Source: an uncultured Dehalococcoidia bacterium
Lineage (GTDB): Bacteria > Chloroflexota > Dehalococcoidia > Lucifugimonadales > CAJWER01
Assembly (NCBI GenBank): GCA_958296115.1
Contig: OY282442.1
Span: forward strand, 1,371,158 to 1,435,157
Direction: 5' to 3'
Length of the DNA stretch: 64,000 nt
In this document: positions 6,469-64,000 of the stretch, piece after piece
Position numbering within the stretch: the first letter of the stretch is position 1
Layout of the letters: every line of letters begins with the position of its first letter
Position numbers and translations under genes: made by a program
The notes under the pieces: generated by a model
Database searches by the model: none
What the model saw: the letters and a program-made list of their open reading frames with translations, nothing else
What the model was told of the DNA's origin: nothing

Positions 6469-6587
6469 AGGAGGTAGGAGGCGATTATGCCAAGAGGACC
6501 ACAGCGACAGAAGCGGTCCACCCTGTGGCGTGGCGCATCCCGCCCTTCTGGAACCTCCTCGTCGGCGCCGGCATGGCTAGGACGCCA

Positions 6588-11172: not shown

Positions 11173-11235
11173 ACCTTGCCCTGCCGTATGATACCACTGC
11201 GGATGGGCTGATTCAGGATAGTGTCATGGGGCAAT

Positions 11236-11303
11236 CTCCCCAAAATTGCCCCAAAATTCCCCCAGATCGCCCCTTGACACCGCGAGAACAGCCGTGCTAG
11301 TCT
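11236..11303 (+). promoter_or_regulatory. Sigma-70-type promoter with phased A-tract (UP-like) repeats, copy 1
   Basis: TTGACA at 11274-11279, an 18-nt spacer ending in TGc, and TAGTCT at 11298-11303. It is preceded by the ~11-bp phased units aaaattgcccc / aaaattccccc / agatcgcccc. The whole arrangement is conserved in the second copy. Confidence 0.45.
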
Positions 11304-11308
11304 AGTAG

Positions 11309-11748
11309 ACGGCCCGAAGGGGCGTACACCAAACGAGCACAGAACCACCTCTGCCAAATCTGGGCATTCATGCCGTCGCTGATGTTGGGACGGGACCACC
11401 TGCGGTATGAGAAGGTCCGGCTGTGTTTCGGCGCCTCGCCAGGAGGACGCAGTGCCAAATGCGTCTCCCCCGTTCCAGGTGCGGACTCTCGGACGACCGG
11501 GAGGACCGTAGCCAGCGCAGCCCGACGCCTTGGCGGGTGGAAGGACGAAGCGCGAAACGCAGGCGGTCCCGCAAGGGCCCGTCAGCCGTCCGGGAAAGTT
11601 AGAGGAGGGGCTGCACCCCCAATGTCGGCGGGCGATCGACGTCGGCATCCTCGAAGCAAGTACCGGAGTCACTGCCTTGCAAGGCAAACTCATCTCCCGC
11701 GAGAGCGGGGGAAACCAGGAGTAGACAGGACGCGGGTCCCAGACCCGC
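11309..11748 (+). ncRNA. Candidate ~440-nt structured ncRNA of unknown family, copy 1
   Basis: Non-coding interval immediately downstream of the promoter. Hairpins are capped by GNRA loops only on this strand: cucccgc-GAGA-gcggggg, ggtccc-GCAA-gggccc and cucucgg-ACGA-ccgggag. It ends in the hairpin gcgggtc-cca-gacccgc (11732-11748). A second copy lies at 50825-51265. Confidence 0.45.
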
Positions 11749-11751
11749 CAA

Positions 11752-12110
11752 GTACCCTCTCCCTCACGGGGGAAAGGGCCAGGGTGAGGGCAAACGCCCC
11801 GCCCTGCGTCCCCTCCCCCAAAGGGAAAGGGCTAGGAGACAAGGGCGATAAGCCCGCAAAAGGAGCCGACCGAGACGAAACGAACATAGCCGAAGGCGCC
11901 AACAAGGCCCCAGCCTTCATCACCCCTCTCCTCACGGGGGGAGAGACCCAAGGGTGAAGGCAATTCAGCGCGCCCGTCTTGTCCCCCCTCCCTTGACGGG
12001 AAAGGGATAGGGTGAGGGTGACTCCCCCTCGCCCCAAAAGGACCGCAGGCGGGACGCCTGCCACATCCCCTCTCCCCTGACGGATAGGGGCAATTCAGCG
12101 CGCCCGCCTC
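11752..12110. repeat. Array of REP-like palindromic elements (ccctctccc-N4/5-gggagaggg family), copy 1
   Basis: At least five degenerate hairpin units, for example 11921-11948 and 11981-12012, interspersed with gggtgagggtga modules. The array is homologous to 50470-50822 in inverted orientation. Confidence 0.75.
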
Positions 12111-12196
12111 ATCCCACGCTGGCGGGAGACACGTAGTTTGCCCTGCCGGGCGGACTGGACGAGGGGCCATTTAGACGTGATTGCCCCTGGATAGTG

Positions 12197-12799
12197 TCAC
12201 GGGTCGGATGGACCGGGTACCTCTACAGGCGGCTCGTCCCTGAAACGAAAAGACCAGGGGCCGTCAGCGCCGTCCGCCGGGGCATCGAAGATAGAGACCC
12301 ACGGCCTCGGCGCGCCGCCGGGTCTCAACAGCGCGGTCTCGGTAAGCTCGTAACCGCCGGGCGACTTGGCCCAGGCGGCGAGGCCAGACTCCGAGCTCCG
12401 CAGCGTCGCGCCGTCTGGCGTGGTCATCGAAAAGTCGTCCTGCGACACGCGGATATCTTCCCCGGAGCCGTTGGCGAGGACGTACCGCACCTCGACGAAT
12501 ACGCCTTCCGGCTCTGTTCCGCCTATATGAGGCAGGAGCCGGGCGCCGCTGACCGCTATCACAACCGTCGCTGGCTGCGGCGAAGCTGGCGGGGGGTCCG
12601 GTCCACCTGAACAGGCGACCGAACATGCCATAACCGCCGCGGCCAAAGCATGGGCTTGAGTGACGAATCGCGCGGTTACTCCTCGCCGAATCGGAGCACC
12701 TGCTGAAGTGAAAGCCGTCGGACCACGATAACGACGGCAGTGATTATCAACGTGAACGCTGCGACGATGGCCGCGTACGTCAAGGCAAGGGCCGCCCAA
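12197..12799 (-). CDS. Putative lipoprotein, DUF4352-like beta-sandwich (start uncertain)
   Basis: Signal-like RRGVTARFVTQAHALAAAVMACSVAC with a lipobox Cys, followed by a Pro-rich linker and a beta-rich domain. The only canonical start, ATG 12799, overlaps the upstream FtsX gene by ~120 nt, so the true start may be non-canonical near 12690. Confidence 0.45.
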   Translation of the reverse strand: MGGPCLDVRGHRRSVHVDNHCRRYRGPTAFTSAGAPIRRGVTARFVTQAHALAAAVMACSVACSGGPDPPPASPQPATVVIAVSGARLLPHIGGTEPEGVFVEVRYVLANGSGEDIRVSQDDFSMTTPDGATLRSSESGLAAWAKSPGGYELTETALLRPGGAPRPWVSIFDAPADGADGPWSFRFRDEPPVEVPGPSDP

Positions 12800-27184: not shown

Positions 27185-27232
27185 CCACCCTATCCCCTCT
27201 CCCTTGATGGGAGAGGGTTAGGGTGATTCAGG
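27185..27232. repeat. REP-like palindromic element (single unit)
   Basis: ccctctccc (27195-27203) - ttgat - gggagaggg (27209-27217), followed by ttagggtgattca. It sits between convergent genes. Confidence 0.8.
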
Positions 27233-29605: not shown

Positions 29606-29655
29606 GGCAGTCCCGCCTTGTCCCCTCTCCCGTCAAGGGAGAGGGAGATTCAGGA
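29606..29655. repeat. REP-like palindromic element (single unit)
   Basis: ggcagtcccgccttgtcc + ccctctccc (29623-29631) - gtcaa - gggagaggg (29637-29645) + agattcagg. It is the reverse-complement relative of the element at 45393-45452. Confidence 0.8.
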
Positions 29656-35852: not shown

Positions 35853-37513
35853 CCGGCGACACTCCGGTTCCCGTAGTAGTCCCTCATGGCCTCGACCAAG
35901 CCTTCGAGCGTGCTCTCACCTGCAAGTATAGCAACATCCAGCCCGGCATTGCTCGCCTCGCGGGCGGTGATAGGGCCGATACACGCGGCCTCGACGCCCG
36001 CGAGCCTTCCGACGTCGTCGAGCAGCGCGATGAATCCCCTCACGGTGGACGCGCTGGTGAAGGTTACAACGTCAATTCCGTCCGACAGGACTTGGGGCAA
36101 GCGGGCCTGGGACCCCTCGACGTGTACGGTGCGGTAGGAAGGGACGGTCTCGACCTCGGCTCCGAGCCGCTCCAGCCCGGCCGAGAGCGCCGCGCGCCGG
36201 GTCTGCGCCCCTGGCAGGAGGATACGCAGCCCCGAGACGCCGAGCCTGCCCATCTCGTCCACCAGGCCCTCGGAGACGGACTTCGAGACGACGAGGTCGG
36301 CGGCGATGCCCGACTCGCGCAGCGCGCGCGCGGTGCCCCGACCGATGGCGGCCACCCGGCTTGCCCGAAGGGCGCGGGCGTCTCGGCCAGCCCCGGACAA
36401 GCGGTCGAACATGGCGTTCACCGCGTTGGCGCTCGTGAAGACGACCCAGTGGAAGCTATCGAGCCGGTCAAGCGCCGAGTCGAGAGGGCCGAAGTCGTCC
36501 GGCGGCTCGATGCGAATGGACGGGACCTCCACGACCTCGGCCCCCTCGCGCTCCAGCAGAGCCGTCAGCTCCCAGGACTGGGCGGAGGACCTGGTAACCA
36601 GGACACGCCTGCCGAACAGGGGCCGGTCGTCGAACCAGCGCAGCCGCTCCCGCAGGCGCGCGACCTGGCCGAAGATCGCTGTGACCGGCGGCCCCAGCCC
36701 CTCGGCACTGGCCCGATCGAGCACGTCCGAGAGCGTCCCGACGACGGTGCGCTGCCGCGGCGTTGTACCCCACTCGACCAGCGCGGCGGGCGTATCGGCT
36801 GGCATGCCCTCGGCCGCGAGCCTATCTATCACGGAGCGAAGAGCCCTCCAGCCCATCATCACCACCACAGAGCCTCGCGTCCTGGCCAGCGCGGACCAAT
36901 CGACCGGCGACCCCGGCTTGTCGGGCGACTCCGAGCCGGTGACGAATGTGGCGGACGAGGCGAGCCCCCGGTGCGTTACGGGAATGCCGGCATACGCGGG
37001 GGCCGCTATTGCCGAGGTAACCCCGGGCACGACCTCGAACGTCACGCCCGCCTCCGATAGCGCGCCGGCCTCCTCGCCGCCGCGCCCGAAGACGAAGGGG
37101 TCGCCGCCCTTCAGCCTCACCACGCTCTTGCCGCCCGCCGCGTTGGACACGAGGCGGGCGTTGATGTCCCGCTGACGGCTGCCGCCTCCGCCGGGCGTCT
37201 TGCCCGCGTCCACCAGGTCGGCGTCCGGCCGGGCCCGGCGCAGCAGCCGCGCGTCTACCAGCCGGTCGTACACGACGACGTCGGCCGACTCCAGGAGCTC
37301 CAGCCCGCGGACCGTTATCAGGCCGGGGTCGCCGGGTCCCGCGCCGACGAGATATACGACGCCTGCTCTCGCGGTTACGATTGCAGCATCTCCCCGGCCT
37401 CCTGCCGCAACGCCTCCGCCAGCGCATGGCCCAGCTCGGCGGGGCGGGCGATTAGCCCCGTCGCATCCTGGCGGAATATGACGGAGCCGTCCGGGGCAGC
37501 CGCCATTCCCCAC
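35849..37513 (-). CDS. cobA/hemD: Bifunctional uroporphyrinogen-III C-methyltransferase / uroporphyrinogen-III synthase
   Basis: The N-terminal half (VYLVGAGPGDPGLITVRG...) is SUMT and the C-terminal half is HemD-like. The only canonical start in frame is the GTG at 37513, which overlaps hemC by 139 nt, so the start is uncertain. Confidence 0.85.
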   Translation of the reverse strand: MGNGGCPGRLRHIPPGCDGANRPPRRAGPCAGGGVAAGGRGDAAIVTARAGVVYLVGAGPGDPGLITVRGLELLESADVVVYDRLVDARLLRRARPDADLVDAGKTPGGGGSRQRDINARLVSNAAGGKSVVRLKGGDPFVFGRGGEEAGALSEAGVTFEVVPGVTSAIAAPAYAGIPVTHRGLASSATFVTGSESPDKPGSPVDWSALARTRGSVVVMMGWRALRSVIDRLAAEGMPADTPAALVEWGTTPRQRTVVGTLSDVLDRASAEGLGPPVTAIFGQVARLRERLRWFDDRPLFGRRVLVTRSSAQSWELTALLEREGAEVVEVPSIRIEPPDDFGPLDSALDRLDSFHWVVFTSANAVNAMFDRLSGAGRDARALRASRVAAIGRGTARALRESGIAADLVVSKSVSEGLVDEMGRLGVSGLRILLPGAQTRRAALSAGLERLGAEVETVPSYRTVHVEGSQARLPQVLSDGIDVVTFTSASTVRGFIALLDDVGRLAGVEAACIGPITAREASNAGLDVAILAGESTLEGLVEAMRDYYGNRSVAG

Positions 37514-38286
37514 ATTCGGAGCTCGCGGTCATGGACGGGCTTCGCATATGCGGCCACGGGGACCTTGCAGCCCCCGCCGAGCCTGTGTAGGAAGGCCCGC
37601 TCGGCCTCCAGGGCGGCGCTGCTGGGCCGATGTTCGACCGCGCGGAGCATGTCCAGTACGCCGTGGTCGTCGGAGCGCGCCTCGACGGCCAGAGCGCCCT
37701 GCCCTGCGTCAGGGACGAACGTTTCGGGCGGAAATATATCGTGCGCTTCGCCGAGCCGGCCCAGGCGGGCGAGACCTGCCGCCGCCAGCGCTACGCCATC
37801 GTAGCCCGGACTGCCGACCTTGTCTATGCGCGTTCCAACGTTGCCGCGGATGGGCGCTATCTCCACGTCGGGGCGGAGCGACTTCAGGAGAGCCGCGCGC
37901 CGGGGGCTTCCCGTCCCGATTCGCGCCCCCGGCGGCAGGTCCGAAAGGGGCAGGCCCCACCTGTCTATCAGGGCATCCCGGGGGTCCTGCCGCGGGACGG
38001 TCCCGGCCAGCGCGAGCCCCGCGGGAAGAGAGTGGGGCAGGTCCTTGGCGCTGTGTACGGCCAGGTCTATATCGCCCTCCAGGAGTGCCGATTCGATATC
38101 CTTGGCAAACGCGCCTCGGCCCAGGCTCGACAGGGACGCGTCCTTCCTGCGGTCCCCCGTCGTCGTCATGGGCGCCACGATGAAGGCCGTTCCGGGGAAG
38201 CGCGCTCGGAGGCGTGAGACCACCTCCTCCGTCTGGACTATGGCGAGAGGGCTTCTGCGCGTTCCGACACGGCATCTAGGGGGCAT
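37375..38286 (-). CDS. hemC: Hydroxymethylbilane synthase (porphobilinogen deaminase)
   Basis: VGTRRSPLAIVQTEEV...TTGDR...IDLAVHSAKDLP...GSPRR...RGNVGTR. The ATG at 38286 overlaps the upstream gene end by 11 nt. Confidence 0.9.
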   Translation of the reverse strand: MPPRCRVGTRRSPLAIVQTEEVVSRLRARFPGTAFIVAPMTTTGDRRKDASLSSLGRGAFAKDIESALLEGDIDLAVHSAKDLPHSLPAGLALAGTVPRQDPRDALIDRWGLPLSDLPPGARIGTGSPRRAALLKSLRPDVEIAPIRGNVGTRIDKVGSPGYDGVALAAAGLARLGRLGEAHDIFPPETFVPDAGQGALAVEARSDDHGVLDMLRAVEHRPSSAALEAERAFLHRLGGGCKVPVAAYAKPVHDRELRMWGMAAAPDGSVIFRQDATGLIARPAELGHALAEALRQEAGEMLQS

Positions 38287-38998
38287 TGTCGTCCGGCGAG
38301 AGGTCCTCCCACATCTTGCATACCCCATCCGGGCAATCGCACCCGGAGCCGATCATAAGGTTGGACATGAGCGCCTCCCTGGCCCCCTCGGCGTCTCCCA
38401 ATCGTATCATCTCGACGAGGTCGTCCGTGATGCAAGCCTGCCAGTGGTCGGGATGCAGCCTGATTCCGCGTCGGGAAAGCTCGGCGCGCGCCTCCGCCAG
38501 CATCGGCGCGAGGTCGCCGTACTCGATGGCGCGGTATCTCGACCCGGTGCGGCTGGTCCCGGCCATCTCTTCCCGCAGCTTGCGCGCGAGGGCGGGGCTG
38601 GACCCGCCGGTCGAGGCCGCGATGATAACGTCGCCGTTCCTGACGATGGCGGGGGCTATCCACGAGCAGAGGCGGGTAACGTCGTTGACGTTCAGGGGCA
38701 CGCTGCGCTCGTCGGCCTCCCGCGCCGCCTCCTCGTTCACGCGGCTGTCGCGGGTGTCGGCGACGATGGCAATGAACGCCCCGTCCAGGTCCCCGCGCCG
38801 GTATCCCCGCCGGCGCCAGGTCAACGCGCCCTCGTCGGCCAGCGCCCGCACTGCCGGAGTAACCTGGGGGCTGTACACGACGACGTCGGCGCCGAATTCG
38901 ACCAGGCGCCCCACCTTCTCCTCGCCCACGGCTCCGCCGCCTATCACGACGCAGCGCCGGCCCCTGAGGTCGAGGAACACGGGATAGTAGGCTGGCAC
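38276..38998 (-). CDS. sirC: Precorrin-2 dehydrogenase / sirohydrochlorin ferrochelatase (CysG N-terminal / SirC-Met8 type)
   Basis: YYPVFLDLRGRRCVVIGGGAVGEEKV is an NAD-binding start typical of siroheme synthase N-domains. It leads the hem cluster. Confidence 0.75.
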   Translation of the reverse strand: MPAYYPVFLDLRGRRCVVIGGGAVGEEKVGRLVEFGADVVVYSPQVTPAVRALADEGALTWRRRGYRRGDLDGAFIAIVADTRDSRVNEEAAREADERSVPLNVNDVTRLCSWIAPAIVRNGDVIIAASTGGSSPALARKLREEMAGTSRTGSRYRAIEYGDLAPMLAEARAELSRRGIRLHPDHWQACITDDLVEMIRLGDAEGAREALMSNLMIGSGCDCPDGVCKMWEDLSPDDNAP

Positions 38999-39191
38999 GG
39001 CAGGTCCTCGGGGAGTGGGCTGCGCGCCAGCTTCGCAGCCTGCAAGAGCCGGCGCGGGCTTACTGTACCATCAGCGCGCGGCGGCATTCAATTGGCTGTA
39101 TGTCCCGGGTACCTGTTTTCAGCTTGGTAGACTGGGGCTCTCGATTCCCAATTCCATTTCGCTGTGCTATCTTGGCGCCGGGAGGGAGATC

Positions 39192-39839
39192 CTGCAGGAA
39201 GCTAGGCGGTTACTGTTCAGGCGGCTCCGCGGCGAGATCCGCGACACGCGCGTAATCGAAGCGATGGAGCGCGTTCCGAGGGAGGCGTTCGTCCCCCAAG
39301 ACGCCCAAGAATACTCATACGAAGACTTCCCTCTCTCCATCGGTGAGGGCCAGACCATCTCGCAGCCTTTCATGGTCGCCCTGATGCTGGAGGCTCTCGA
39401 GGTCAGAAGGTCCGACAGGATACTCGAGATCGGGACCGGCAGCGGATACCAGGCGGCGATCCTCGCGGAGCTTGCCAAAGAGGTCATAACGGTCGAGCGG
39501 ATCGAGTCGCTGTCCGGCCCGGCGCGGGAGCGTCTTCGCGCCCAAGGATATGGCAATGTTGCCGTCGTAATGGCGGGAGACGCATTGGGCTGGCCGGACG
39601 GCGGGCCGTATGATGGCATCGTCGTCGCGGCGGCGGCACCGGCGCTGCCGCGGACACTCAAGGAGCAGCTCGCCGTAGGCGGCCGCATGGTCATTCCGGT
39701 TGGCTCACGGACCAGCCAGGAGCTGATGAAGGTTACGCGGACGGCCGACTCCTACTCGGTGCGCACCTTGGGGGCCTGCCGCTTCGTTCCTCTCATAGGC
39801 CCCGGAGCCTGGCCGGAGGAGCGGGCTGCCCCCTCTTGA
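39192..39839 (+). CDS. pcm: Protein-L-isoaspartate O-methyltransferase
   Basis: VIEAMERVPREAFVP...GQTISQPFMVALMLE...LEIGTGSGYQAAILA. The start is uncertain: in-frame CTG at 39192 after GGAGGGAG, or ATG at 39264. Confidence 0.8.
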   Translation: MQEARRLLFRRLRGEIRDTRVIEAMERVPREAFVPQDAQEYSYEDFPLSIGEGQTISQPFMVALMLEALEVRRSDRILEIGTGSGYQAAILAELAKEVITVERIESLSGPARERLRAQGYGNVAVVMAGDALGWPDGGPYDGIVVAAAAPALPRTLKEQLAVGGRMVIPVGSRTSQELMKVTRTADSYSVRTLGACRFVPLIGPGAWPEERAAPS

Positions 39840-40038
39840 GCGGGGGTTCAGCCTGAGTTCGGCGTCCGTTCGGCTGCTCGCCGCCATCCGGGCACGATCA
39901 GCGTCGGCCAGCGCCGTTCTTTTCCGCGACCGTTTGGGCGCATGGACACGCACGTTCCGGGCGACTCGCCCAACTACCAGACCTACCAAGCCGAGATAAG
40001 CGCACATGGGTTCGCTAGTGTCGAGGCGGGGGAGGCGC

Positions 40039-40147: not shown

Positions 40148-41854
40148 ATGAAGAGCGATTTCATTATCGCTTTGACGCAATTGGCCGCGGAGCGAAACCT
40201 GCCTAGGGAGATGGTGCTGTCCGCTATCGAGGCGGCGCTCGCCTCGGCATACAAGCGCGACAGCGTGGCTGCCGGCCAGAACATATCCGTGAAGCTGGAC
40301 CCCGGGAGCGGCGACGTAAGCGTCTTCATAGTGAAGACCGTGGTGGAGGAGGTGACGGACTCCCTGTTCGAGCTGCCCCTCAAAGAGGCCAAGAGGATCA
40401 ACGCGGACGCGCAGATCGGCGAAGTCGTACCGACCGAGAGGCTGCCGCACAGCGCCGGCCGCATAGCGGCCCAGACCGCCAAGCAGGTCGTAATGCAGCG
40501 GCTGAGGGAGGCGGAACGGGACCTGGTGTACCAGGAGTTCGCCGACAAGGCGGGCGAGATCTTCACGGTCACCGTCCAGAAGATAGAGGCGCGGCAGGTA
40601 ATCGTCGAGATGGGGAGGGCCGAGGCGACATTGCCGCAATCGGAGCAGCCCGCATACGAGCGATACCGCGTGGGGCAAAAGATAAAGGTGCTGCTCCAGT
40701 CCGTCAGGCAGTCGAACGAGGGGCCCGAGATCGTCGTGTCGCGCGCCGACAAGATGCTGCTCAGGCGTCTGTTCGAGATGGAGGTTCCCGAGATATACAG
40801 CGGCTCGGTCGAGATCATGGACATAGCGCGGGAGGCTGGCTCGCGGAGCAAGGTCGCCGTCTTTGCCAAGCAGGATGGCGTAGATGCCGTTGGGTCATGC
40901 GTCGGTCTTCGCGGCATACGCATCCAGAACATAGTGAACGAGCTGCACGGCGAGAAGATAGACGTGGTGTCGTGGGTGAAGGACCCGAACGACTATATCA
41001 CCAGGGCGCTGAGCCCTTCCATGGTGATGCGCGTCGAGGTGAACGAGGAAGACAAGTCGGCCATCGCCGTAGTGCCGGAGAACCAGCTTTCCCTTGCCAT
41101 AGGCAAGGAGGGCCAGAACGCCAGGTTGGCGGCGAGGCTCACGGGCTGGAAAGTCGATATCAAGAGCAACGTTGAGATGGAAGAGATCGAGAAGGCTGCC
41201 GCCGCCCGTGCCGCCGAGGAAGCGGAGAGGGCCAAGGCGGCGGCAGAGGCCAAGGCGGCGGCGCAGGCCAAGGCGGCGGCGCAGGCAGAGGCGGTGGCGC
41301 AGACAGAGGCGGCGGCCCAGGCGGAGGTTGCGGCCCAAGCGGAAGCTGCGGCCCAAGCGGAGGCTGCGGCTCAGGCGGAGGCTGCGGCCCAGGCGGAGGC
41401 TGCGGCTCAGGCGGAAGCGGCGGCGCAGGCGGAAGCGGCAGCCGCTGCGGTCGAAGAGCCGGCCATGCCCGTCGCCGTGGTCGAGGAGACGACGCCGGCT
41501 ATCGAGGTCGAGGAGGCTGCCGTCGAGATGCCTGCCGTCGAAGAGCCGGTGGTCGAGGAACTCGAGACTATCGAGGAGCCGGAGGTTCTCGAGGACCTCG
41601 TGCTAAAGGAGCTCATGGGCGGCGAGGTGGTAGAAGAAGTGGGGGCGGCAGCCAAGGTTGAAACCGTGGAGGCGGCCACCTCTATCGAGGAGTTGTCCGA
41701 GGATGTATGGACAGTCCGGAACGTGCCGGCTCCCCAGCCTAGCGTGATAAGATTCCGCGAGGATATCGTGGAGCTGGGCGGAGCCGACGGGCCGCGGCGT
41801 GGAAGGCGCAGGCGCAGGCGGGGGGGAGCCGGGCAACAGAACAGAAGGCGCTGA
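40148..41854 (+). CDS. nusA: Transcription termination/antitermination factor NusA with long Ala/Gln/Glu-repeat and Arg-rich C-terminal extension
   Basis: N-terminal domain, S1 and two KH domains are recognisable ([18 protein letters not shown]..., [38 protein letters not shown]). GGAGG RBS before the ATG at 40148. Confidence 0.9.
41231..41450. repeat. Imperfect 18-bp tandem repeat (gcggcccaggcggaggct) encoding (AAQAEA)n
   Basis: About a dozen in-frame units inside the nusA 3' region. They translate to [39 protein letters not shown].... Confidence 0.8.
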
Positions 41855-45392: not shown

Positions 45393-45452
45393 CTGAATCA
45401 CCCTCACCCTAACCCTCTCCCGTCAAGGGAGAGGGGATAAGGCGGGACTGCC
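45393..45452. repeat. Full-length REP-like palindromic element
   Basis: ctgaatcaccctcaccctaa-ccctctccc-gtcaa-gggagaggg-gataaggcgggactgcc, between the convergent truB and DUF4340 genes. Confidence 0.8.
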
Positions 45453-50335: not shown

Positions 50336-50469
50336 TTTCGGAGTCCTGCCCAGTCCAATCTCTTAAACGGCTGCGCCTCTGAGAGGGTTAGCATGAAGAT
50401 TATCTGAAATCCAAGCCGTCCCGGTCAAGGATAGGGGAGAGTGTAGAGTGGTGAGTTAGGGAGGGGGAG

Positions 50470-50822
50470 GGATGCAGGCGGGACGCCTGCGGTCCTTTTG
50501 GGGCGAGGGGGAGTCACCCTCACCCATCAAGGGAGAGGGGACAAGACGGGCGCGCTGAATTGCCTTCACCCTTGGGTCTCTCCCCGTGGGGGGAGGGGTG
50601 ATGAAGGCTGGGGCGTTGTTGGCGCCTTCGTCTATGTTCGCGTTGTCTCGGTCGGCTCCTTTGCGGGCTTATCGCCCTTATCCTGGCCCTTCTCCCGTCT
50701 GGGGAGGGGGACGGGGCGGGGAATCGCCCTTGTCTCCTAGCCCTTTCCCTTCGGGGGAGGGGCGCAGGGCGGGGCGTTTGCCCTCACCCTGGCCCTTATC
50801 CCCCTTGAGGGAGAGGGTACTT
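50470..50822. repeat. Array of REP-like palindromic elements, copy 2 (inverted relative to 11752-12065)
   Basis: Collinear with the reverse complement of copy 1. It carries one extra unit (about 50660-50715). Confidence 0.75.
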
Positions 50823-50824
50823 GG

Positions 50825-51265
50825 CGGGTCTTGCGACCCGCGACCTGTCTACTCCTGGTTTCCCCCGCTCTCGCGGGAGATGAGTTTGCCTTGCAAGGCA
50901 GTGACTCCGGTACTTGCTTCGAGGATGCCGACGTCGATCGCCCGCCGACACTGGGGGTGCAGCCCCTCCTCTAACTTTCCCGGACGGCTGACGGGCCCTT
51001 GCGGGACCGCCTGCGTTTCGCGCTTGGACCTTCCACCCGCCAAGGCGTCGGGCTGCGCTGGCTACGGTCCTCCCGGTCGTCCGAGAGTCCGCACCTGGAA
51101 CGGGGGAGGAGCATTTGGCACTGCGTCCTCCTGGGGGGGCGCCGAAACACAGAGCGACCTTCTCATACCGCGGGGGCCCCGTCCCAACAGCAGCGGCGGC
51201 ATGAATACCCTGATATTTGGTAGAGGTGGGTCTGTGCTCGTTTGGTGTACGCCCCTTCGGGCCGT
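50825..51265 (-). ncRNA. Candidate ~440-nt structured ncRNA of unknown family, copy 2
   Basis: Reverse complement aligns with 11309-11748. By hand alignment the 3' ~260 nt are almost identical (3 differences) and the 5' ~160 nt differ at roughly 17 positions. The terminal hairpin loop is GCAA here versus cca in copy 1. Confidence 0.45.
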
Positions 51266-51270
51266 CTACC

Positions 51271-51337
51271 AGACTAGCACGGCTGTTCTCGCGGTGTCAA
51301 GGGGCAGTTTGGGGCAATTTGGGGGCAATTTTCGGGG
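51271..51337 (-). promoter_or_regulatory. Sigma-70-type promoter with phased A-tract repeats, copy 2
   Basis: On the minus strand: TTGACA (51300-51295), an 18-nt spacer, and TAGTCT (51276-51271). It is preceded by gaaaattgcccc / caaattgcccc / aaactgcccc. Confidence 0.45.
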
Positions 51338-51347
51338 TAGGCCGGGG

Positions 51348-51402
51348 AATCACCCTCACCCTGGCCCTCTCCCGTCGAGGGAGAGGGGAGAAGGCGGGGG
51401 GA
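51348..51402. repeat. REP-like palindromic element (single unit)
   Basis: gaatcaccctcaccctgg-ccctctccc-gtcga-gggagaggg-gagaaggcgggg. Confidence 0.75.
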
Positions 51403-51439
51403 GGGAGTGCAGGCGGGGCGGCTGCGGTCCTTTTTCTGA

Positions 51440-51468
51440 TTGACTCGGCAGGTCTAGCGGCATACTAT
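51440..51468 (+). promoter_or_regulatory. Candidate sigma-70 promoter of the type I R-M operon
   Basis: TTGACT (51440-51445), a 17-nt spacer, and TACTAT (51463-51468). It lies 64 nt upstream of the hsdM ATG. Confidence 0.5.
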
Positions 51469-51531
51469 TTGGGTTCAGGTTCGAGGGGGCTGTGAGCATG
51501 GCCTCGGCGAAGCGCGAGGGGGTTGAGCGCG

Positions 51532-53143
<1,612 letters not shown>

Positions 53144-53151
<8 letters not shown>

Positions 53152-53575
53152 GGCCATGCCACTTGAGTTGGACCACCTGAGGAAATCTATCCAAGCCCTC
53201 TCGGACCTGCTTGCGGTCAGCGACAACGACGAGCGCATGGGGCAGTTGAGCGAGGTCGAGCGGACCGGCATCCGCGCCGGCGTCATCAAGAACTTCGAGA
53301 CCACCTATGAGCTATCCTGGAAGCTGATAGCCCGCTGGCTGAAAACCCACGTCGGTTCCGAAGCCGACGGCGTAACGCGGCGTGAGCTATTCCGACTTGC
53401 CGCTGAAAATCGCCTTATCCCTGACGTGGACTTGTGGATGGGTCATCATGTCGCAAGGAACGACACCGCCCACGTATACGACGAGGGAAAGGCTGATCAG
53501 GTCTATAGAGCCACCATGGACTTCGCGCATGACGCGCGGCGGCTGCTGGAGATCCTGGAAGCGCGGAATGATTGA
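53144..53575 (+). CDS. HEPN-domain protein (HI0074 / nucleotidyltransferase substrate-binding family)
   Basis: 143 aa with the family-typical [13 protein letters not shown] and the Rx4H motif RNDTAH. The start overlaps the hsdM stop (ATGAATAG). Confidence 0.8.
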
Positions 53576-55172
53576 TCTCAACCCGAATCATCTTGTAACG
53601 GTCGAGGGCATCTTGGCCGAGCACGTGCCGGAGTGCGAGGTGCGAGCTTTCGGCTCCCGCGCGACCTGGACCGCGAAGGACTACTCGGACCTTGACCTGG
53701 CGGTAGTCGGCGGCGGGCCGTTGGACATGGGAAGGCTGGGACGCCTGAGGGAAGCCTTCCAGGAGTCCGACCTGCCCATGCGGGTGGAAGCGCTAGACTG
53801 GCACGCCGTCTCCCAGGGTTTCCGGGATGTGATCGAGCGGGGATACGTGGTAGTGCAGAAGGGGGCGGGAGAGTGGCGCGAAGTGGCGCTGGGGGGAATC
53901 GCCGAGATCAACGAAGCTACCTACTCCCCTAAAGAAGGCTGGCCGTTCGTCAATTATCTGGATACCGGGAATATCACCGAGAACCACATATCGGAAATTC
54001 AGCATCTCGTTACCGGCACAGATAAGATTCCGAGCCGAGCACGTAGAAAGGTTAAGCAGGGCGACATCGTGTATTCCACCGTGCGCCCCAACCAGCGGCA
54101 CTTCGGGTTGATCAAGGAAGTACCGGAAAACTTCCTGGCCTCGACGGGATTTGCCGTCATTCGTGGGAAGGCTGATGTCGCTTGCACGGATTTCATTTAT
54201 TGGTTCCTAGCGCAAGACCATGTAGTCGATTACCTTCATTCAATAGCAGAGAACAGCACGTCAGCGTACCCGTCTATCAAGCCTGGCGACTTGGAACAAT
54301 TGGTACTGCCCATGCCGCCGTTGGCCGAGCAGCGGGCGATTGCCCACGCGCTGGGGACGCTGGACGACAAGATTGAGTTGAATCGGCGGATGAATGAGAC
54401 GCTGGAGGGGATGGCGCGGGCGCTGTTCGAGTCGTGGTTCGTGGATTTCGACCCGGTGCGGGCGAAGATGGAGGGGCGGGATACGGGCCTGCCAGCGGAT
54501 GTCGCCGCGCTGTTCCCGGGCCGGCTGGTGGAGTCGGAGCTGGGGGAGATTCCGGAGGGGTGGGGGGTTGGGACGCTTGATGGTATGATAGAGTTGCTGA
54601 GTGGTGGCACCCCCAAGACGTCAGTTGTTGAGTACTGGGATGGGGATATACTCTGGTACACCGCTAAGGACGCTCCCAACCTGAGCGATGTCTTTGTCCT
54701 GGAGACTGAGAGGACCATAACCCAAGCCGGGATTGAGAACAGCGCCGCAAGAGTTCTTCCAGTGGGAACAACGACAATCACCGCCAGAGGCACTGTTGGT
54801 AGACTTGCCTGTCTCGGCATACCGATGGCTATGAATCAGACCTGCTATGGGATTCGCGGCGCTCACGGGTATCCTGATTTCTTCACCTATTGGAACGTGA
54901 GGACAGCTGTGGATGAGTTGCAACAGAGGACTCACGGCACGATCTTTGATACAATCACCCGTCAGACCTTCACCCTCATTGAGATGGCAACGCCGCCTGT
55001 AGAATTGGCGAAGGCATTCGAATCGACGCTGGGGCCTGTGATGGGGCGCATCCGCGGCAATCTTCAGGAATCTCGTACTTTGACCATCTTGCGGGATGCG
55101 TTGCTGCCGAGGCTGGTGTCGGGGGAGGTGCGGGTGGGAGAGGTAAATCGACCTGCGACAAGGAGTGCATAA
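53568..55172 (+). CDS. hsdS: Minimal nucleotidyltransferase (MNT) domain fused in frame to a type I R-M specificity subunit
   Basis: The first ~95 aa carry FGSRA...SDLDLAV (GS...DxD NTase motif). The rest is a two-TRD HsdS with the central conserved helix LAEQRAIAHALGTLDDKIELNRRMNETLE and the C-terminal LRDALLPRLVSGEVRV. The start overlaps the HEPN stop (ATGATTGA). Confidence 0.8.
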   Translation: MIDLNPNHLVTVEGILAEHVPECEVRAFGSRATWTAKDYSDLDLAVVGGGPLDMGRLGRLREAFQESDLPMRVEALDWHAVSQGFRDVIERGYVVVQKGAGEWREVALGGIAEINEATYSPKEGWPFVNYLDTGNITENHISEIQHLVTGTDKIPSRARRKVKQGDIVYSTVRPNQRHFGLIKEVPENFLASTGFAVIRGKADVACTDFIYWFLAQDHVVDYLHSIAENSTSAYPSIKPGDLEQLVLPMPPLAEQRAIAHALGTLDDKIELNRRMNETLEGMARALFESWFVDFDPVRAKMEGRDTGLPADVAALFPGRLVESELGEIPEGWGVGTLDGMIELLSGGTPKTSVVEYWDGDILWYTAKDAPNLSDVFVLETERTITQAGIENSAARVLPVGTTTITARGTVGRLACLGIPMAMNQTCYGIRGAHGYPDFFTYWNVRTAVDELQQRTHGTIFDTITRQTFTLIEMATPPVELAKAFESTLGPVMGRIRGNLQESRTLTILRDALLPRLVSGEVRVGEVNRPATRSA

Positions 55173-56029
55173 TGGCTTTGATACCGCCTTCTTTCCTGAA
55201 CACGGTTGTTGCTTTGGGAAGAGAGTGCCAAGATGGGACAGCCCGATACAACGCAACGGGTTTTCTGTATGGTATTCCCAGTGGTGATACCGACGAGAAT
55301 GGGAAAAATATGTATCACCCTTTCCTAGTAACTAATCGGCACGTGTTCGAAGGGATATTTAAGCATACTGATACACTGTGTGCGAGGTTCAACAAGCGCA
55401 CACAAATTGATGCAAATGTGTACACTATGAAAGAGGGAAATCGCCCATGGACTGTTCATCCGGATCCGCGCATTGATGTTGCGGTCTTGGAAATCGACTT
55501 AAATAGCTTAAGAGCCGACGGTATCGAATACGCATTCTTCCCGGGCGATACGCATGCACTTACGCTCGAGCAAGCCCGTAGCAGTGAGATCAGCGAAGGA
55601 GATGGAGTTTTTGTATTAGGATTTCCATTGGGGGACGCCGGAGATGAGCGGAATTATCCAATCGTGCGACAAGGAATAATTGCCCGTATTCAGAATTGGC
55701 TGAGGGGAGATGCACGTACATTCTTGATAGACGCTTCCATTTTCCCTGGCAACAGTGGTGGCCCAGTTCTCCTTAAACCCGAAATCGCTTCTATTCAGGG
55801 TACACAACGTAATGATAGATGCGTACTAATCGGCATGGTCTCTTCCTACCTACCATACCAAGAAGTTGCTATAAGCAACCAGACCGGACGGACAAGGATG
55901 ATATTCGAAGAGAATTCAGGGCTTGGCACCGTAGTGCCTCATGACGCGATACAAAAGACCATTAGAATCGCTGTTGATAATCTCAGTTCTAGCGAACGGG
56001 TTGCTGCTCCAGAAGAGCAAACCGAATGA
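55172..56029 (+). CDS. Cytoplasmic chymotrypsin-fold (S1, Trypsin_2-like) serine protease
   Basis: 285 aa with no signal peptide. Triad contexts are LVTNRHVF, IDVAVLEI and FPGNSGGPVL. The start overlaps the hsdS stop (TAATG). The gene is markedly AT-richer than its flanks. Confidence 0.75.
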   Translation: MALIPPSFLNTVVALGRECQDGTARYNATGFLYGIPSGDTDENGKNMYHPFLVTNRHVFEGIFKHTDTLCARFNKRTQIDANVYTMKEGNRPWTVHPDPRIDVAVLEIDLNSLRADGIEYAFFPGDTHALTLEQARSSEISEGDGVFVLGFPLGDAGDERNYPIVRQGIIARIQNWLRGDARTFLIDASIFPGNSGGPVLLKPEIASIQGTQRNDRCVLIGMVSSYLPYQEVAISNQTGRTRMIFEENSGLGTVVPHDAIQKTIRIAVDNLSSSERVAAPEEQTE

Positions 56030-56039
56030 AGCCTCCCCC

Positions 56040-56328
56040 ATGACCACCATCACCGAAGCTGACGTCGAGCGGGCGGCCCTGGAATGGCTGGCGGGTGGAG
56101 CATGGGCGAGACATCGCGTCCGACACGCCCGGCGCGGAGCGGGACGATTATGGGCAGGTCGTCCTGGAGGGGCGGCTGCGTGTGGCCGTGGGCCAGACCC
56201 GCCGCGCGGCCAAATTGCGGCGCATCGTCTCGAACGGGCGTGAGTCTTGCGCCCTCGCCGCCCTGCGTGATACACTGGCGCCGAGGCTGGTGTCGGGGGA
56301 GATACGAGTGAGGGAAATTGTGCCATGA
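56040..56328 (+). pseudogene. Chimeric relic: 5' fragment of an hsdR fused to the 3' end of an hsdS
   Basis: 56040-56190 aligns to the hsdR start ([19 protein letters not shown]... versus [19 protein letters not shown]...) with a ~13-nt deletion. 56215-56328 encodes ...[28 protein letters not shown], compared with the hsdS C-terminus ESRTLTILRDALLPRLVSGEVRVGEV. Confidence 0.8.
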
Positions 56329-56777
56329 CCTTGGGTCAGCAGGAATACAAGGCCATTATTAGCGATCCTAACAAAGTCATTCGTGAAAACATCCTTTGGG
56401 AGGGCAATCCCAATTCCACAAGCCGTGAATTCAGAATAGACGTCGAATCCGACGAGGGTTACCCCATTTTTGTAAAGGGCTGGTACAATTCCTCTTCAGG
56501 CAAGTTGTCCTACGCTATCATCCATCGCACCGTGGGCCGAATCCATGGCTTGGATTTGGGAGCAGACCACCGGAACCCGGATGGGAAATTGGTGGGCGAG
56601 AAGCACAAGCACCGCTGGGCGCCGGACTATCGGGATAAGTGTGCCTACGTGCCAGAGGACATTACCGAGACTTGGGACCGTCCAGTTGCCGTTTGGCGCC
56701 AGTTCTGCGCAGAAACGCGTCTGACCCACTCAGGCGCCATGCAGCCCCCTGTAACTCAAAGGGTATTGCCGCTGTGA
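56325..56777 (+). CDS. Hypothetical protein (150 aa) with a His-rich GADHRNPDG-x7-HKHRW motif
   Basis: Low-GC ORF. The ATG overlaps the relic hsdS stop (ATGA) and its own stop overlaps the next start (GTGA). I recognise no family. Confidence 0.6.
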
Positions 56778-57550
56778 ACGTCAACGAACTCTGCATATCC
56801 ATAGGGCAATCGCTGCCGCCCCTGTTTGAGTGCTCGCCGGCCCCGCAAGAGGGAGTACGGGTGCGTACGCCGCTGCTGTATCCCGACGGCGGAGTTGTTG
56901 ACGTTTTTGTACTGGAACGGGGCTACGGTTACACCGTTACCGACTTTGGGGATGCTCTGGGCTGGCTTGGATTGCAATCGGTAAGCAAGCGACGTTCACC
57001 CAAGCAACAATCTCTGGCGCAGGACGTGTGCCAAACGCTGCGCATCGAGTTGGTTCAAGAACAACTGGTTCTTCGCAACGTGCTGAACCATGCACTGGCT
57101 GAATCGGTGTTGCGGGTAGCTCAGGCCGCCGTGCGCGTCTCCGACCTGTGGTTCACTCTGCGGAGCCAATCCCTCCAGACAACTGCTGATGAGGTGGAGG
57201 AGTGGTTACGCGAGAAGCAGATTAACTATGAACGCGCCGTACAGAGACAGGGAAGATCAATGCACACCTGGACGGTCGATTTTGAGACCTACGCCAACCG
57301 CACCTCGCTCGTCTTTTTGCTAAGCACGGGCGCCCGTGGGGCGGCCCGTAGGTTGACTGAGCATGTTTTGTCTGGATGTATGGACCTGAACCACCTCAAG
57401 GCTACCCAACAAGGTCTGTACTTCATTTCCCTATTCGACGATACCGAAGACGTATGGCGGGAGGAGGACTTCAATTTGGTAAACGAGCAATCAGAAATCG
57501 CACGTTGGTCACATTCCGATGAGCTTGAGCGCCTCCTCAGGGCCGCATGA
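56774..57550 (+). CDS. DUF1828/DUF1829-like two-domain protein
   Basis: 258 aa from the GTG at 56774. The N-terminal pattern [38 protein letters not shown] resembles DUF1828. The C-terminal half ([21 protein letters not shown]) resembles DUF1829. The assignment is from memory of family patterns and was not searched. Confidence 0.5.
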
Positions 57551-57563
57551 TCGCCCTCACCGA

Positions 57564-60695
<3,132 letters not shown>

Positions 60696-60754: not shown

Positions 60755-63700
60755 TCATCTTAGCGACCTTCCGAACCCTCGTTTCCACGCGAAGGTTGTT
60801 CCAACCGTTACCACTGTCAATACTGCTGTCCCCGCCAACCCTAACAGCACAAGGAGCGGGGAGAAGCCGGTCGGCTCGGGCTCGGGTGATATTGTGGGTG
60901 TGGGTGGAGGGGGAGACGCAGTGGGAGATGGCGCGGCGGTAGGCGTAGCCGTGGGCGTTGCGGTAGGCGTGGGGGATGACGTAGGCGTGGGCGTCGGCGT
61001 GCCTGTAGGGGCAGGCGTTGCGGTAGGCGTGGGTGTGGGCGTTGCGGTAGGCGTAAGCGTGGGCGTTGCGGTCGGCGTAGGCGTGGGTGTGGCGGTCGGC
61101 GTGCCTGTAGGCCTGGGAGTTGGCACAGCCGTAGGCGTGGGCGTTGCGGTAGGCGTAGGTGTAGGCGTTGCGGTAGGCATAGGGGCAGGCGTGGCTGTAG
61201 GCGTAGGCGTGGGCGTTGCGGTAGGCGTGGGGGATGGCGTAGGCGTAGGCGTGGGCGTCGGCGTCGGCGTACCTGTAGGGATAGGCGTGGCTGTAGGCGT
61301 AGGCGTGGCTGTAGGCGTGGGGGTGGGAGTAGGCGTGGCTGTAGGCGTGGGGGTGGGAGTAGGCGTTGGAGTAGGCGTTGGAGTGGGTGTAGGCGTTGGT
61401 GTAGCCGCTGGCGCAGGCGCAGGCGCGGGCGGCGCGGGAAAGGTGAAGACAATCGGCGGCACGACCACCGGCGGCACGGTGTCGTTGTCGGTCAGGGTGA
61501 CCGTCGCCGAGCTCACCGTCAACCCGACGTCTGACGCGGTCGCCCCGTCCACCACGATGGTCTCGCTCCCCTCGACGATGGTGTCGTCGATAGGGATGAT
61601 GACGAGGGTGGACGTGCCGCTGGTCTCCGCCGCGTTGATGGTGACGTCGGTAGTCGTCGCCGTGTAGTCGGAGCCGCGGGTCGCGGTCCCCGAGAGGGAG
61701 ACGGTGACGGCGGTGTCCTCGGCGCGGGTAGCGCCGCCGTCCAGGGTGGCGGTTACGGTGGTAGTGGTGGCGGCGTCGGACTCGTCCAAGGTGGTTGGCT
61801 CCACCGACAGGACGATGTCAGTGGGCGTCGCGTCGTCGTCGGTGATGATGATGGTCACCGAGGAGGAGGCGCCGAGCGTTGGGGCTGGACCGCCGCCGCC
61901 TGTGGGGCTGGATATGGTGAAGGTGAAGCTCTCGCCGGTCCCTTCGTCTATTGCGTCCTGCGTGGTCTGCACGAGCACGCTCTTGTCCGCGTGGTCCGCG
62001 GGGGTGAAGGTCAGAGCGCCGGATGCGGCGGTGTAGTCGGTGGAGGTGGCCGTGCCGTGCGAGGTGGCGTAGGTCACCGTGAGGTCGGCGGTCGGGGTGA
62101 CTCCGGCAGGTGAGAGCGAGACGGTGGAGGTGGCGGTATCCCCCTCGTCCACCGACGAGGGGCCGGAGACGCTGACGGTGATTGGGTCGCTCTCGGAGAT
62201 GGTTACGGCTGCGGAGTCGGATGCGGTCACCCGGTCCGACAACGCGCTCGTCACCATGCCCAGCGTCACGCTGATGCCCTCCGCCGTCTCTGAAAGGCTG
62301 TCGTCGGTTATGGAGATGGTGAAGGTCTTGGTCGCCCCGGCCGCTGAGTTCGTCGCGAAGCTCACGGAGCCGGAAGCAGTGCCGTAGTCCGCCGCCGTCG
62401 CAGTGGTGGATGTGGCTGACCACTCCACCGCGACCGCCGCGTCCACCTCGTGCGAGAGGGTGACGGTGAAGGAGGCGCTTGCGCCCTCTGCCACGCTTGC
62501 CGCCGGGCCTGTGATGGAGAGGGCGGCGTTGTCGTCGTCGTTGAGGGTGACGGTGGCCGAGCTCACGGTCAACCCGACGCCTGCGGCGGTGGCCCCCTCG
62601 ACCACGATGGTCTCGTTCCCCTCCACCACGGCGTCGTCCGTCGGCGTAACCGTGAGGGTGGACGCGCCGCTGGGCTCCCCCGCTCTGATGGTGACGTCGG
62701 CAGTCGTCGCGGTGTAGTCGGCGCCGCGCGTCGCGGTTCCCGAGAGGGAGATGGTGACGGCGATGTTCTCGGCGCGGGTCGTGCCGCCGTCGAGAGATGC
62801 GGTTACGGTGATGTCCGTGGCGTCGTCGGACTCGTCCACATCGCTGGGGTTCGCCGACAGGTTAATGTCCGTGGGCGCGTCGTCGTCGTCGGTGATGGTG
62901 GTGGTCACCGAGGAGGACGCGCCGAGCGTTGGGGCTGGCCCGCCTCCGCCTGTGGGATTGGATATGGAGAAGGTGAAGCTCTCGCCGGTCCCCTCGTCTA
63001 TTACGTCATCGGTCGTCTGCACGAGCACGCTCTTGTCCGCGTGGTCCGCGGGGGTGAAGGTCAGAGCGCCGGACGCCGCGGTGTAGTCGGTAGTGGTCGC
63101 CGTGCCGCCCGAGGTGGCGTAGCTTACGGTCAGGTCTGATGTGGGTGTAACCCCGGAAGGCGAGAGCGAGATCGTGTATGTGGCGGTATCCCCCTCGTCC
63201 ACAGACGCCGGGCCGGAGACGCTGACGGTGATTGGGTCGCTGGCCGCTATGGTCACGGTTGCGGAGTCGCTGGATGCGGACACCTGGCTCGACAACGCGC
63301 TCGTCACGTCGCCCAGCGCCACGCTGAAGCTCTCGGAGGACTCCGAGAGGTCGTCGTCGGTGACGGCTATGGTGAAGGTCTGCGTAGCCCCCGCCGCTGA
63401 GTTGGCGCTGAAGGTGACCGATCCGGAAGCCGTGCCGTAGTCGCTCGTCACGGCGGTGGTGGACGTGGCCGACCACGCGACCGTGACCGCCGCGTCCACC
63501 TCGTGCGAGAGGGTGACGGTGAACCCCGCGTCGCCGCCCTCGCTCACGCTCTGCGTCGCCGGGGTGAGGGTCAGCGCGGCCTCGTCGAGCGGCTGCGGGT
63601 CAGTGGGAGGAGTCGGCGGGGCGTCCGCGTCTCCGTCGGTCAGCGTGATGGTGGCCGAGCTCACGGTCAACCCGACGTCTGATGCGGTGGACCCGTCCAC

Positions 63701-64000
63701 CACGATGGTCTCGTCGCCCTCGACGATGGCGTCGTCCGTCGGCGTAATCGAGAGGGAGGCGGTTCCGCTGGACATACCCGCGTCGATGGTGACGTCGGTG
63801 GTCGTCGCGGCGTAGTCGGCGCTGCGGGTCGCGGTTCCGGCCAGGCTGACGGTGACGACGGTGTCCGTGGCGCGGGTGGTGGCGCCGTCGAGGGATGCGG
63901 TTACGGTAACGTCCGTGGCGCCGTCGGACTCGTTCACCTCGCTGGGGTTCACCGACAGCGTGATGTCTGTGGGCGCGTCGTCGTCGTCGGTGATGATGGT
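60755..64000 (-). CDS. Giant Calx-beta repeat surface protein (5' end outside the window) with PT-rich stalk and C-terminal TM anchor
   Basis: Repeated Calx-beta modules ([18 protein letters not shown]...[16 protein letters not shown]). The reading frame continues to the window edge. The C-terminus has ~190 aa of PT repeats followed by [26 protein letters not shown]...KRGFGRSLR. Confidence 0.75.
60895..61450. repeat. Low-complexity Pro/Thr/Ala-coding microsatellite-like repeats
   Basis: Degenerate repeats of ggcgtaggcgtgggcgttgcggtaggcgt (coding strand is minus), translating to (TPTPTPTAT)n. Confidence 0.85.

Follow-up and report, generated by a model that had tools for sequence, protein, structure and literature searches.

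Region 50462–51336 on the minus strand of a 64-kb stretch of DNA from an uncultured Dehalococcoidia bacterium (hereafter the window) belongs, as one of its copies, to a high-copy repeat family dispersed through a 3.0-Mb Chloroflexota genome. We refer to this region as copy B, and to the second, inverted copy in the window, which aligns with it over 11238–12078, as copy A. The family is probably a promoter-bearing structured-RNA repeat residing on a transposon-like unit, with a mosaic conservation that reflects uneven constraint together with recombination. An original prediction, made from the letters of the window, had described two inverted copies of a promoter plus structured-RNA unit with unevenly spread differences, and had offered gene conversion or a guide-like 5′ segment as explanations.

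Exact local alignment showed that copy A (11238–12078) is indeed collinear with the reverse complement of copy B (51336–50462). The same inverted arms were returned by an independent repeat search of the window, and nhmmer detected exactly two family copies inside it. The aligned repeat is ~840 nt long, compared with the 513 nt described originally, and extends through repetitive extragenic palindromic (REP)-like palindromes; copy B carries a 52-nt insertion relative to copy A. The earlier hand counts proved accurate: in the 265 nt of 11465–11729 the two copies differ at three positions (11545, 11547 and 11622), and in 11305–11464 they differ at 18 alignment columns, comprising 15 substitutions, one 2-nt indel and one 1-nt indel. 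The promoter-like stretch 11238–11304 contains seven differing positions, none of them inside either hexamer. The computed alignment thus confirmed that the differences are clustered, with 18 of 165 columns in 11305–11464 versus 6 of 297 in 11465–11760 (Fisher p = 8.4e-5) and a max-chi-square breakpoint at 11465 (permutation p = 0.003).

Copy number and relatives of the repeat

In this genome of 66% GC, gene callers translate such repeats, and we thus took the translated frames as search queries. Long open reading frames (ORFs) cover the repeat in the window at 11169–11693 (−), 11370–11957 (+) and 50586–51443 (+). As a result of the protein searches with these pseudo-ORFs, the sense frame gave 4 matches and the antisense frame 27, the majority of them on one 3,002,008-bp contig, and at least 33 family copies, counted as distinct pseudo-ORFs, were found on this contig. 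Exact look-up assigned HemB, IF-2, TruB and other proteins of the window, as well as the antisense ORF of copy A, to this same contig, which places the window in this genome. With at least 33 copies in the genome, the two-copy picture of the original prediction has to be abandoned. The best GTDB matches of HemB were SAR202/Dehalococcoidia metagenome-assembled genomes, with at most 70% identity to any species representative.

Five further copies (L001–L005) were obtained as DNA from the ENA metagenome sample ERZ19489113; together with copies A and B they make up the set of seven DNA copies used below, which are 92–96% identical. The neighbours of these five copies are all different, namely cytochrome oxidase/SCO1 and PALP genes, NADH dehydrogenase/AdoMet decarboxylase genes, pyruvate-dehydrogenase-like genes with an ATP-binding cassette (ABC) gene, a sortase gene and an epimerase gene. 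Copy B lies next to a type I restriction-modification (R-M) operon, but the neighbours of the other copies are unrelated to it, which speaks against the functional link suggested by this arrangement; the position of copy B is incidental, an accident of insertion or recombination. An exhaustive hidden Markov model search of 1.84 billion representative proteins revealed a divergent subfamily on four other ENA contigs of 18–67 kb (P0034, P0035, P0036 and P0038) from another metagenomic organism, which retains the same core pseudo-peptides. A further match in this search, P0033, was rejected as a false positive, a repetitive protein. The divergent subfamily adjoins a different REP type, translated as ...GGSRTAPTS....

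Searches at the nucleotide level gave no additional relatives. BLASTN of the unit against phage and plasmid collections yielded no match, and DNA patterns taken from the invariant core and from the 3′ domain had no exact match in viral contigs or in JGI metagenome contigs, the latter also being without a match when the hairpin stem was left free. A scan of the GTDB genomes with back-translated pseudo-peptides returned 194 chance candidates and no confirmed one, the source genome evidently lying outside the searched set.

Translations of the repeat, from either strand, are annotated as "hypothetical proteins" (P0001–P0032, P0037, P0039, P0041 and P0046–P0049). The possibility that the long ORFs of either strand encode a real protein family is extremely unlikely. 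Open frames of 174–285 aa do exist on both strands and are called as genes in public annotations, but the gene calls lie on opposite strands in different copies, none of the pseudo-ORF matches listed has a recorded Pfam domain, and the substitutions are distributed 17/15/15 over the codon phases in both long frames. Furthermore, the copies differ by indels of 1, 2, 3 and 8 nt, and those of 1, 2 and 8 nt make the reading frames switch from copy to copy. These analyses showed that the repeat is non-coding, and that dozens of "hypothetical proteins" here and in related metagenomes are either-strand translations of one non-coding repeat.

Mosaic conservation across the family

The asymmetry between the 5′ and 3′ parts, originally noted as exceeding what a simple recent duplication predicts, is real and is a property of the whole family, not of the A/B pair. 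It was present in all 21 pairs of DNA copies, with a mean identity of 84.7% in the 5′ part versus 97.8% in the 3′ part, and a variable 5′ part on a constant scaffold, as the original prediction put it, is thus a correct description family-wide. Among the seven DNA copies, numbered along copy A, 45 of 150 columns vary in 11324–11469 (columns 21–170 of alignment A3), none of 75 in 11470–11544 and 16 of 185 in 11545–11729. The longest invariant run covers 80 nt at 11465–11544 (P ~7e-6 at mean density) and has its counterpart at 51029–51108 (−) in copy B. In addition, a frameshift-aware aligner was used to thread another 27 pseudo-ORFs onto DNA; it reproduced the five ORFs of known DNA with no mismatches. 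The resulting set of 34 sequences gave the same conservation profile, with no variation in columns 201–240 and two variable sites in columns 181–200.

There is strong evidence of recombination or gene conversion between copies, as 170 of 435 informative site pairs failed the four-gamete test. About three haplotype groups were recognized in the 5′ region (A/L005, B/L001/L002 and L003/L004), and these are freely combined with the 3′ variants. L001, for example, joins a B-type 5′ half to an A-type 3′ half, and the TCC at 11545–11547 is common to copy B and L003. A simple duplication into two copies, followed by gene conversion of the 3′ part only, would agree with the evidence for gene conversion and with the sharp A–B breakpoint at 11465. 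It is nevertheless very unlikely, in view of the at least 33 copies in the genome and of the same asymmetry in every one of the 21 pairs, copies from the other sample included. The originally proposed gene conversion is supported as a process acting between copies, but not in its simple two-copy setting.

The mosaic conservation of copy B probably has an ordinary cause, with two components that apply to the whole family. One is uneven constraint, in that the 5′ domain tolerates helix-keeping substitutions and an apical loop of variable length, while the 80-nt core stays invariant. The other is that the numerous copies frequently recombine or undergo gene conversion with each other, so that a small number of 5′ haplotypes are shuffled onto 3′ parts that are nearly identical.

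We also considered whether the RNA is a guide or specificity RNA, whose 5′ segment would be a programmable module pairing with nucleic-acid targets in the manner of an omega-RNA, a bridge RNA or a CRISPR RNA. The combination of a variable part with a constant scaffold, the multicopy nature of the family and its association with mobile DNA all fit such a role. However, the 5′ variation consists of scattered point changes in predicted helices, most of which keep the helix, and of 1–8-nt loop indels, not of a swapped block, and a few 5′ haplotypes are common to unrelated loci in place of one unique segment per copy. When complementary targets were sought, as originally proposed, no match or complement to the variable segments exceeded chance in the 513 kb searched (longest 15 nt, 13 nt exact, E ≥ 0.8), and the phage and plasmid collections were likewise devoid of matches. 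The surroundings of the seven copies contain no gene for IscB, TnpB, IS110 or Cas proteins. Both RNA ends are conserved, which leaves no flank-derived guide, and the flanking repeats differ between copies, which leaves no fixed target. The seven copies thus show neither the effector gene nor the per-copy guide or fixed-target match by which an omega-RNA or bridge RNA would be recognized, and the guide-like 5′ segment suggested by the original prediction is highly improbable.

Adenine-specific variation of the diversity-generating retroelement type was rejected as well, as the A/B differences are not A-specific.

The promoter-like site and the predicted RNA

Homology among the seven DNA copies starts ~40 nt upstream of the −35 hexamer, at 11-nt-phased AAATTGCCCC repeats. 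It then takes in the RNA region, followed by a REP-like palindrome, by a second conserved segment and by further palindromes. In copy B, all features of which run on the minus strand, the phased repeats occupy 51301–51336. They are the reverse complement of the family terminal motif GGGGCAATT; the "A-tract" repeats earlier read as an UP element may equally be subterminal protein-binding sites. The promoter-like site follows at 51271–51300, with TTGACA at 51300–51295, an 18-nt spacer, TG at 51279–51278 and TAGTCT at 51276–51271. In copy A it lies at 11274–11303 (+), with TTGACA at 11274–11279, an 18-nt spacer, TG at 11295–11296 and TAGTCT at 11298–11303. TTGACA, TG and TAGTCT are invariant in the seven copies and the 18-nt spacer varies, giving the consensus motif TTGACA-18-TGnTAGTCT. 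The −35 agrees with the sigma-70 consensus at 6 of 6 positions and the −10 at 3 of 6, although this consensus may not be that of the host phylum. Positioned just inside the left end of the unit, the site would drive a GC-rich non-coding RNA of ~440 nt or more.

In copy A, the predicted ~440-nt RNA extends over 11310–11748 (+), with the variable 5′ domain at 11335–11464, the core at 11465–11544, the 3′ domain and a terminal hairpin at 11732–11748. In copy B, the variable 5′ domain (51109–51239) is predicted to form a long irregular hairpin with an apical stem-loop of variable length, followed by a second hairpin. The 3′ domain (50842–51028) lies beyond the core and is predicted to contain several GC-rich hairpins, some of them GNRA-capped, before the terminal hairpin GCGGGUC-GCAA-GACCCGC (50824–50841), which has no U-run on its 3′ side. 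The stem of the terminal hairpin is invariant among the copies, and its loop differs (CCA, CCAA or GCAA).

RNAalifold, run on the seven copies, predicted the long irregular hairpin in the 5′ domain with an apical loop of 3–9 nt, and the apical stem-loop shows a compensatory change (UGCC/GGCA versus UACC/GGUA). Across the six helices of the 5′ domain, 96.6% of the pair cells hold standard pairs, compared with 36–53% in slid controls, and 13 of the 38 pairs vary, mostly keeping the pair. The covariation score of this domain was 0.124, versus 0.111 in shuffles (reached by 9 of 500). In the set of 34 sequences, double changes occurred in 5 pairs against 0.8 expected, which was reached by none of 500 shuffles. 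In the 3′ domain, the helices at A3 columns 323–331/341–349 and 394–401/406–413 stay paired through changes. The pair-preserving support for the predicted RNA structure is real but modest. For the divergent subfamily, the threading of the pseudo-ORFs was too ambiguous, and its covariation was not used.

A 14-nt intramolecular complementarity between 11391–11404 and 11558–11571 (GGGACCACCUGCGG / CGCAGGCGGUCCCG) is conserved at equivalent positions in every copy. It could form an alternative long-range helix joining the 5′ and 3′ domains, in competition with the local helices of the consensus fold.

No known RNA family was recognized. A search of the whole window against Rfam 15 gave no match at the gathering thresholds and, at E ≤ 10, chance matches on REP hairpins only, and ARAGORN found no tRNA or tmRNA. 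Covariance-model matches to HEARO, ROOL, GOLLD, OLE, raiA, group II intron domains, RNase P, 6S and tmRNA were sought and none was obtained.

Ends of the unit and traces of mobility

The unit beyond the RNA has recognizable ends. A left-end motif, (CA)GGGGCAAT..., is present in copies A, L002 and L003. A right-end motif, ...ATTGCCC(TG) (reverse complement CAGGGCAATCGCATCT), occurs in copies A, L002, L004 and L005, and L001 has a variant of it. Imperfect terminal inverted repeats (TIRs) of ~17–25 bp, GGGGCAAT...ATTGCCCC, bound copies A and L002, the only two of the seven in which both ends are retained. In copy A, the left TIR at 11228–11252 (GGGGCAATCTCCCCAAAATTGCCCC, itself palindromic) matches the reverse-complemented right TIR at 12163–12187, which ends in ...GATTGCCCC, at 20 of 26 positions. 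The tail between the RNA and the right TIR (11749–12162) contains REP-like palindromes and the second conserved segment. The TIRs are flanked by an 11-bp direct repeat resembling a target-site duplication (TSD), GGATAGTGTCA, at 11216–11226 and 12189–12199, the only two places in the window where this 11-mer occurs. In L002, the ends match at 16 of 17 positions and the flanks are a 10-bp direct repeat, CATTGCGGCA.

The units thus delimited measure 960 bp in copy A and 979 bp in L002. Two different duplications of 10–11 bp, situated exactly at the ends of these units, constitute a signature of DNA transposition, and we estimate the odds of a chance origin of either at ~1e-5 or less. This indicates that the intact unit of ~0.96–0.98 kb may be regarded as a non-autonomous DNA transposon without an internal transposase gene. 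Indeed, several characteristics of a non-autonomous TIR transposon are present: TIRs at both ends, a flanking TSD (A and L002), dispersed copies and the lack of an internal transposase. Mobilisation would then be in trans, by a transposase encoded elsewhere.

The other copies are less complete. L001, L003, L004 and L005 have a single end, and TSDs sought at the flanks of these four one-ended copies were not found. Copy B has lost both ends. Upstream of 51336 it shows only REP-like sequence, without the terminal GGGGCAAT motif. Its tail (50462–50823), which contains REP-like palindromes and the second conserved segment, lacks the right-end motif and abuts the promoter of an ABC-transporter operon (promoter-like site at 50428–50399, minus strand). 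Copy B thus lies between REP-like sequence and this promoter-like site. A role of the repeat as a leader for the ABC operon was rejected, since that operon is equipped with a promoter-like site of its own and the gene downstream of copy A is convergent.

Constraint or neutral spread

Several observations weigh against a structured RNA on a transposon-like unit. Both TIRs and a TSD occur in just two of the seven DNA copies, and neither the 64-kb window nor the 81 kb of related loci yielded a transposase, cognate or otherwise. The originally predicted promoter is plausible, in that the hexamers are invariant while the spacer varies, but the site is passed over by a standard sigma-70 consensus scan, its −10 matching at only 3 of 6 positions. 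Concerning the RNA, only 7 of the 34 sequences were read as DNA, the other 27 having been deduced from translated pseudo-proteins, the covariation is modest because the copies are so similar, and single-sequence folds do not surpass those of shuffles (z = −1.8 and −1.5). Moreover, the predicted pair is broken by 23 of the 47 variant pair types in the 34 sequences, and the global folds obtained from 7 and from 34 sequences differ.

Several of these points, together with the 92–96% identity of the copies and their frequent recombination, would also suit a neutral repeat: the single-sequence folds are not significant, and roughly one in two variant pair types disrupts a predicted pair. The family would then be a decayed non-autonomous transposon or a REP-associated repeat with a functionless RNA, whose 3′ part and core were conserved by recent spread and gene-conversion sweeps. 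We nevertheless consider this explanation unlikely, since an 80-nt invariant run is found in a family with 30% variable columns in the 5′ part (P ~7e-6), the promoter hexamers remain invariant next to a variable spacer, pair-preserving changes exceed the shuffled controls and the divergent subfamily retains the same core pseudo-peptides. Under the favoured reading of a promoter-bearing structured-RNA repeat on a transposon-like unit, the RNA would most likely serve the element as a cis/trans factor or be its non-coding cargo, with selection acting on the core, and its function is possibly connected with the element itself.

Comparison with known elements and RNAs

[quoted passage not shown] Like these MITEs, the present unit occurs as dispersed intergenic copies with TIRs and flanking direct repeats, has no transposase and contains an internal promoter-like site, from which an RNA would be transcribed. 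It differs from them in its length of 960–979 bp, outside the MITE range and twice its upper limit, and in having no identified partner insertion sequence. Moreover, most of its length is taken up by a single long RNA-like region, in which an 80-nt core is invariant and the variation preserves pairs, and it is thus more than a folded pair of TIRs. Mobile insertion cassettes (MICs), such as MIC231 of Bacillus cereus, are TIR-bounded passenger cassettes without a transposase. The present unit resembles them in being TIR-bounded, transposase-free, ~1 kb long, passenger-carrying and presumably mobilised in trans, and by its size it is better placed among MIC-like cassettes than among MITEs. In the MICs the passenger is a protein gene, whereas here it would be a predicted non-coding RNA gene, and the present family has by far the higher copy number.

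The predicted RNA shares with HEARO (the IscB omega-RNA), ROOL, GOLLD, OLE and raiA a length of several hundred nucleotides, a high GC content and multiple hairpins, including GNRA-capped ones, and with HEARO also its multicopy nature and its link to mobile DNA. Unlike HEARO, it has no IscB/HNH neighbour and belongs to a TIR/TSD-type element, not to an IS200/IS605-type one, and unlike all of these RNAs it has no match in Rfam 15 and is known so far only from one Chloroflexota lineage and its metagenomic relatives. Elements of the IS200/IS605 and IS110 types were ruled out by the flanking direct repeats that differ between copies.

To our knowledge, the prokaryotic MITE-derived RNAs described so far are small and weakly constrained, and the large mobile-element RNAs, omega-RNA and bridge RNA, belong to other transposon types. 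A promoter-bearing RNA of ~440 nt with a predicted structure and an invariant core, present in at least 33 copies that make up ~1% of a 3-Mb genome and housed in a transposon-like cassette, would thus be unusual, and we regard it as a clearly delimited candidate for a novel RNA family, from a Chloroflexota lineage that has been little sampled. A more far-reaching proposal, which we consider quite improbable, is that the ~440-nt RNA represents a new large structured class tied to its own DNA transposon. It would act, for example, as a cofactor, regulator or ribozyme that is required for the mobilisation of the TIR/TSD element or controls it, with the core as an active or protein-binding site and the 5′ domain as a tolerant peripheral scaffold. 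If true, it would be the counterpart, in a DDE-type transposon, of the RNA components of IS200/IS605 and IS110.

The family shares with REPs and bacterial interspersed mosaic elements the GC-rich palindromes CCCTCTCCC-N-GGGAGAGGG, which occur inside and beside the unit and elsewhere in the window. Unlike in those repeats, such short palindromes form only parts of the tail and flanks of the unit, and the RNA region is not palindromic. REP-like GC-rich palindromes of the form CCCTCTCCC-N5-GGGAGAGGG, often followed by CCAGGGTGAGGG, are scattered intergenically at 27195–27217, 29623–29645, 45413–45435, 50688–50710 and 51365–51387, and they cluster around and inside the RNA units (~11760–11830, 11920–12030 and 50500–50810). 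A hairpin GCAGGCG-NNN-CGCCTGC, followed by GGTCCTTTT, is located at 12045–12061 (−) and 50473–50491 (+), with a similar one at 51415–51431. On the strand opposite to that of the RNA, it resembles an intrinsic terminator, and it recurs upstream or downstream of several family copies.

Genomic neighbourhood of the window

The window is core chromosome, containing nusA-infB-truB, haem genes and the type I R-M system. The R-M locus (51523–60695) has a lower GC content, 0.59 at 52–56 kb versus 0.66 overall, and its HsdS carries an N-terminal nucleotidyltransferase-like domain. Between hsdS and hsdR lie an ORF for a trypsin-like peptidase (55172–56029) and ORFs for DUF6978 and DUF1828 proteins. The 5′ end of hsdR is duplicated ~1.5 kb upstream (56040–56196 versus 57564–57734, 84–91% identity) and the 3′ end of hsdS is repeated (55090–55141 versus 56264–56315), which suggests a remnant or shuffled R-M module.

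Other repeats were observed in the coding regions. The C-terminal part of nusA contains 12 tandem 18-nt repeats rich in Ala/Glu/Lys codons (41177–41456), and a 1065-aa Calx-beta repeat protein (60755–63952, −) has internal repeats of ~1050 nt and a stretch with 12/18-nt periodicity at 60846–61503. In a region of short ORFs upstream of a Schlafen/AlbA_2-domain gene, 21-nt tandem repeats, GTTGAACGAGGAGCAGGACAG, span 6318–6476. Finally, the GC skew changes from negative to positive at ~36000–40000, between the two inverted copies of the repeat.

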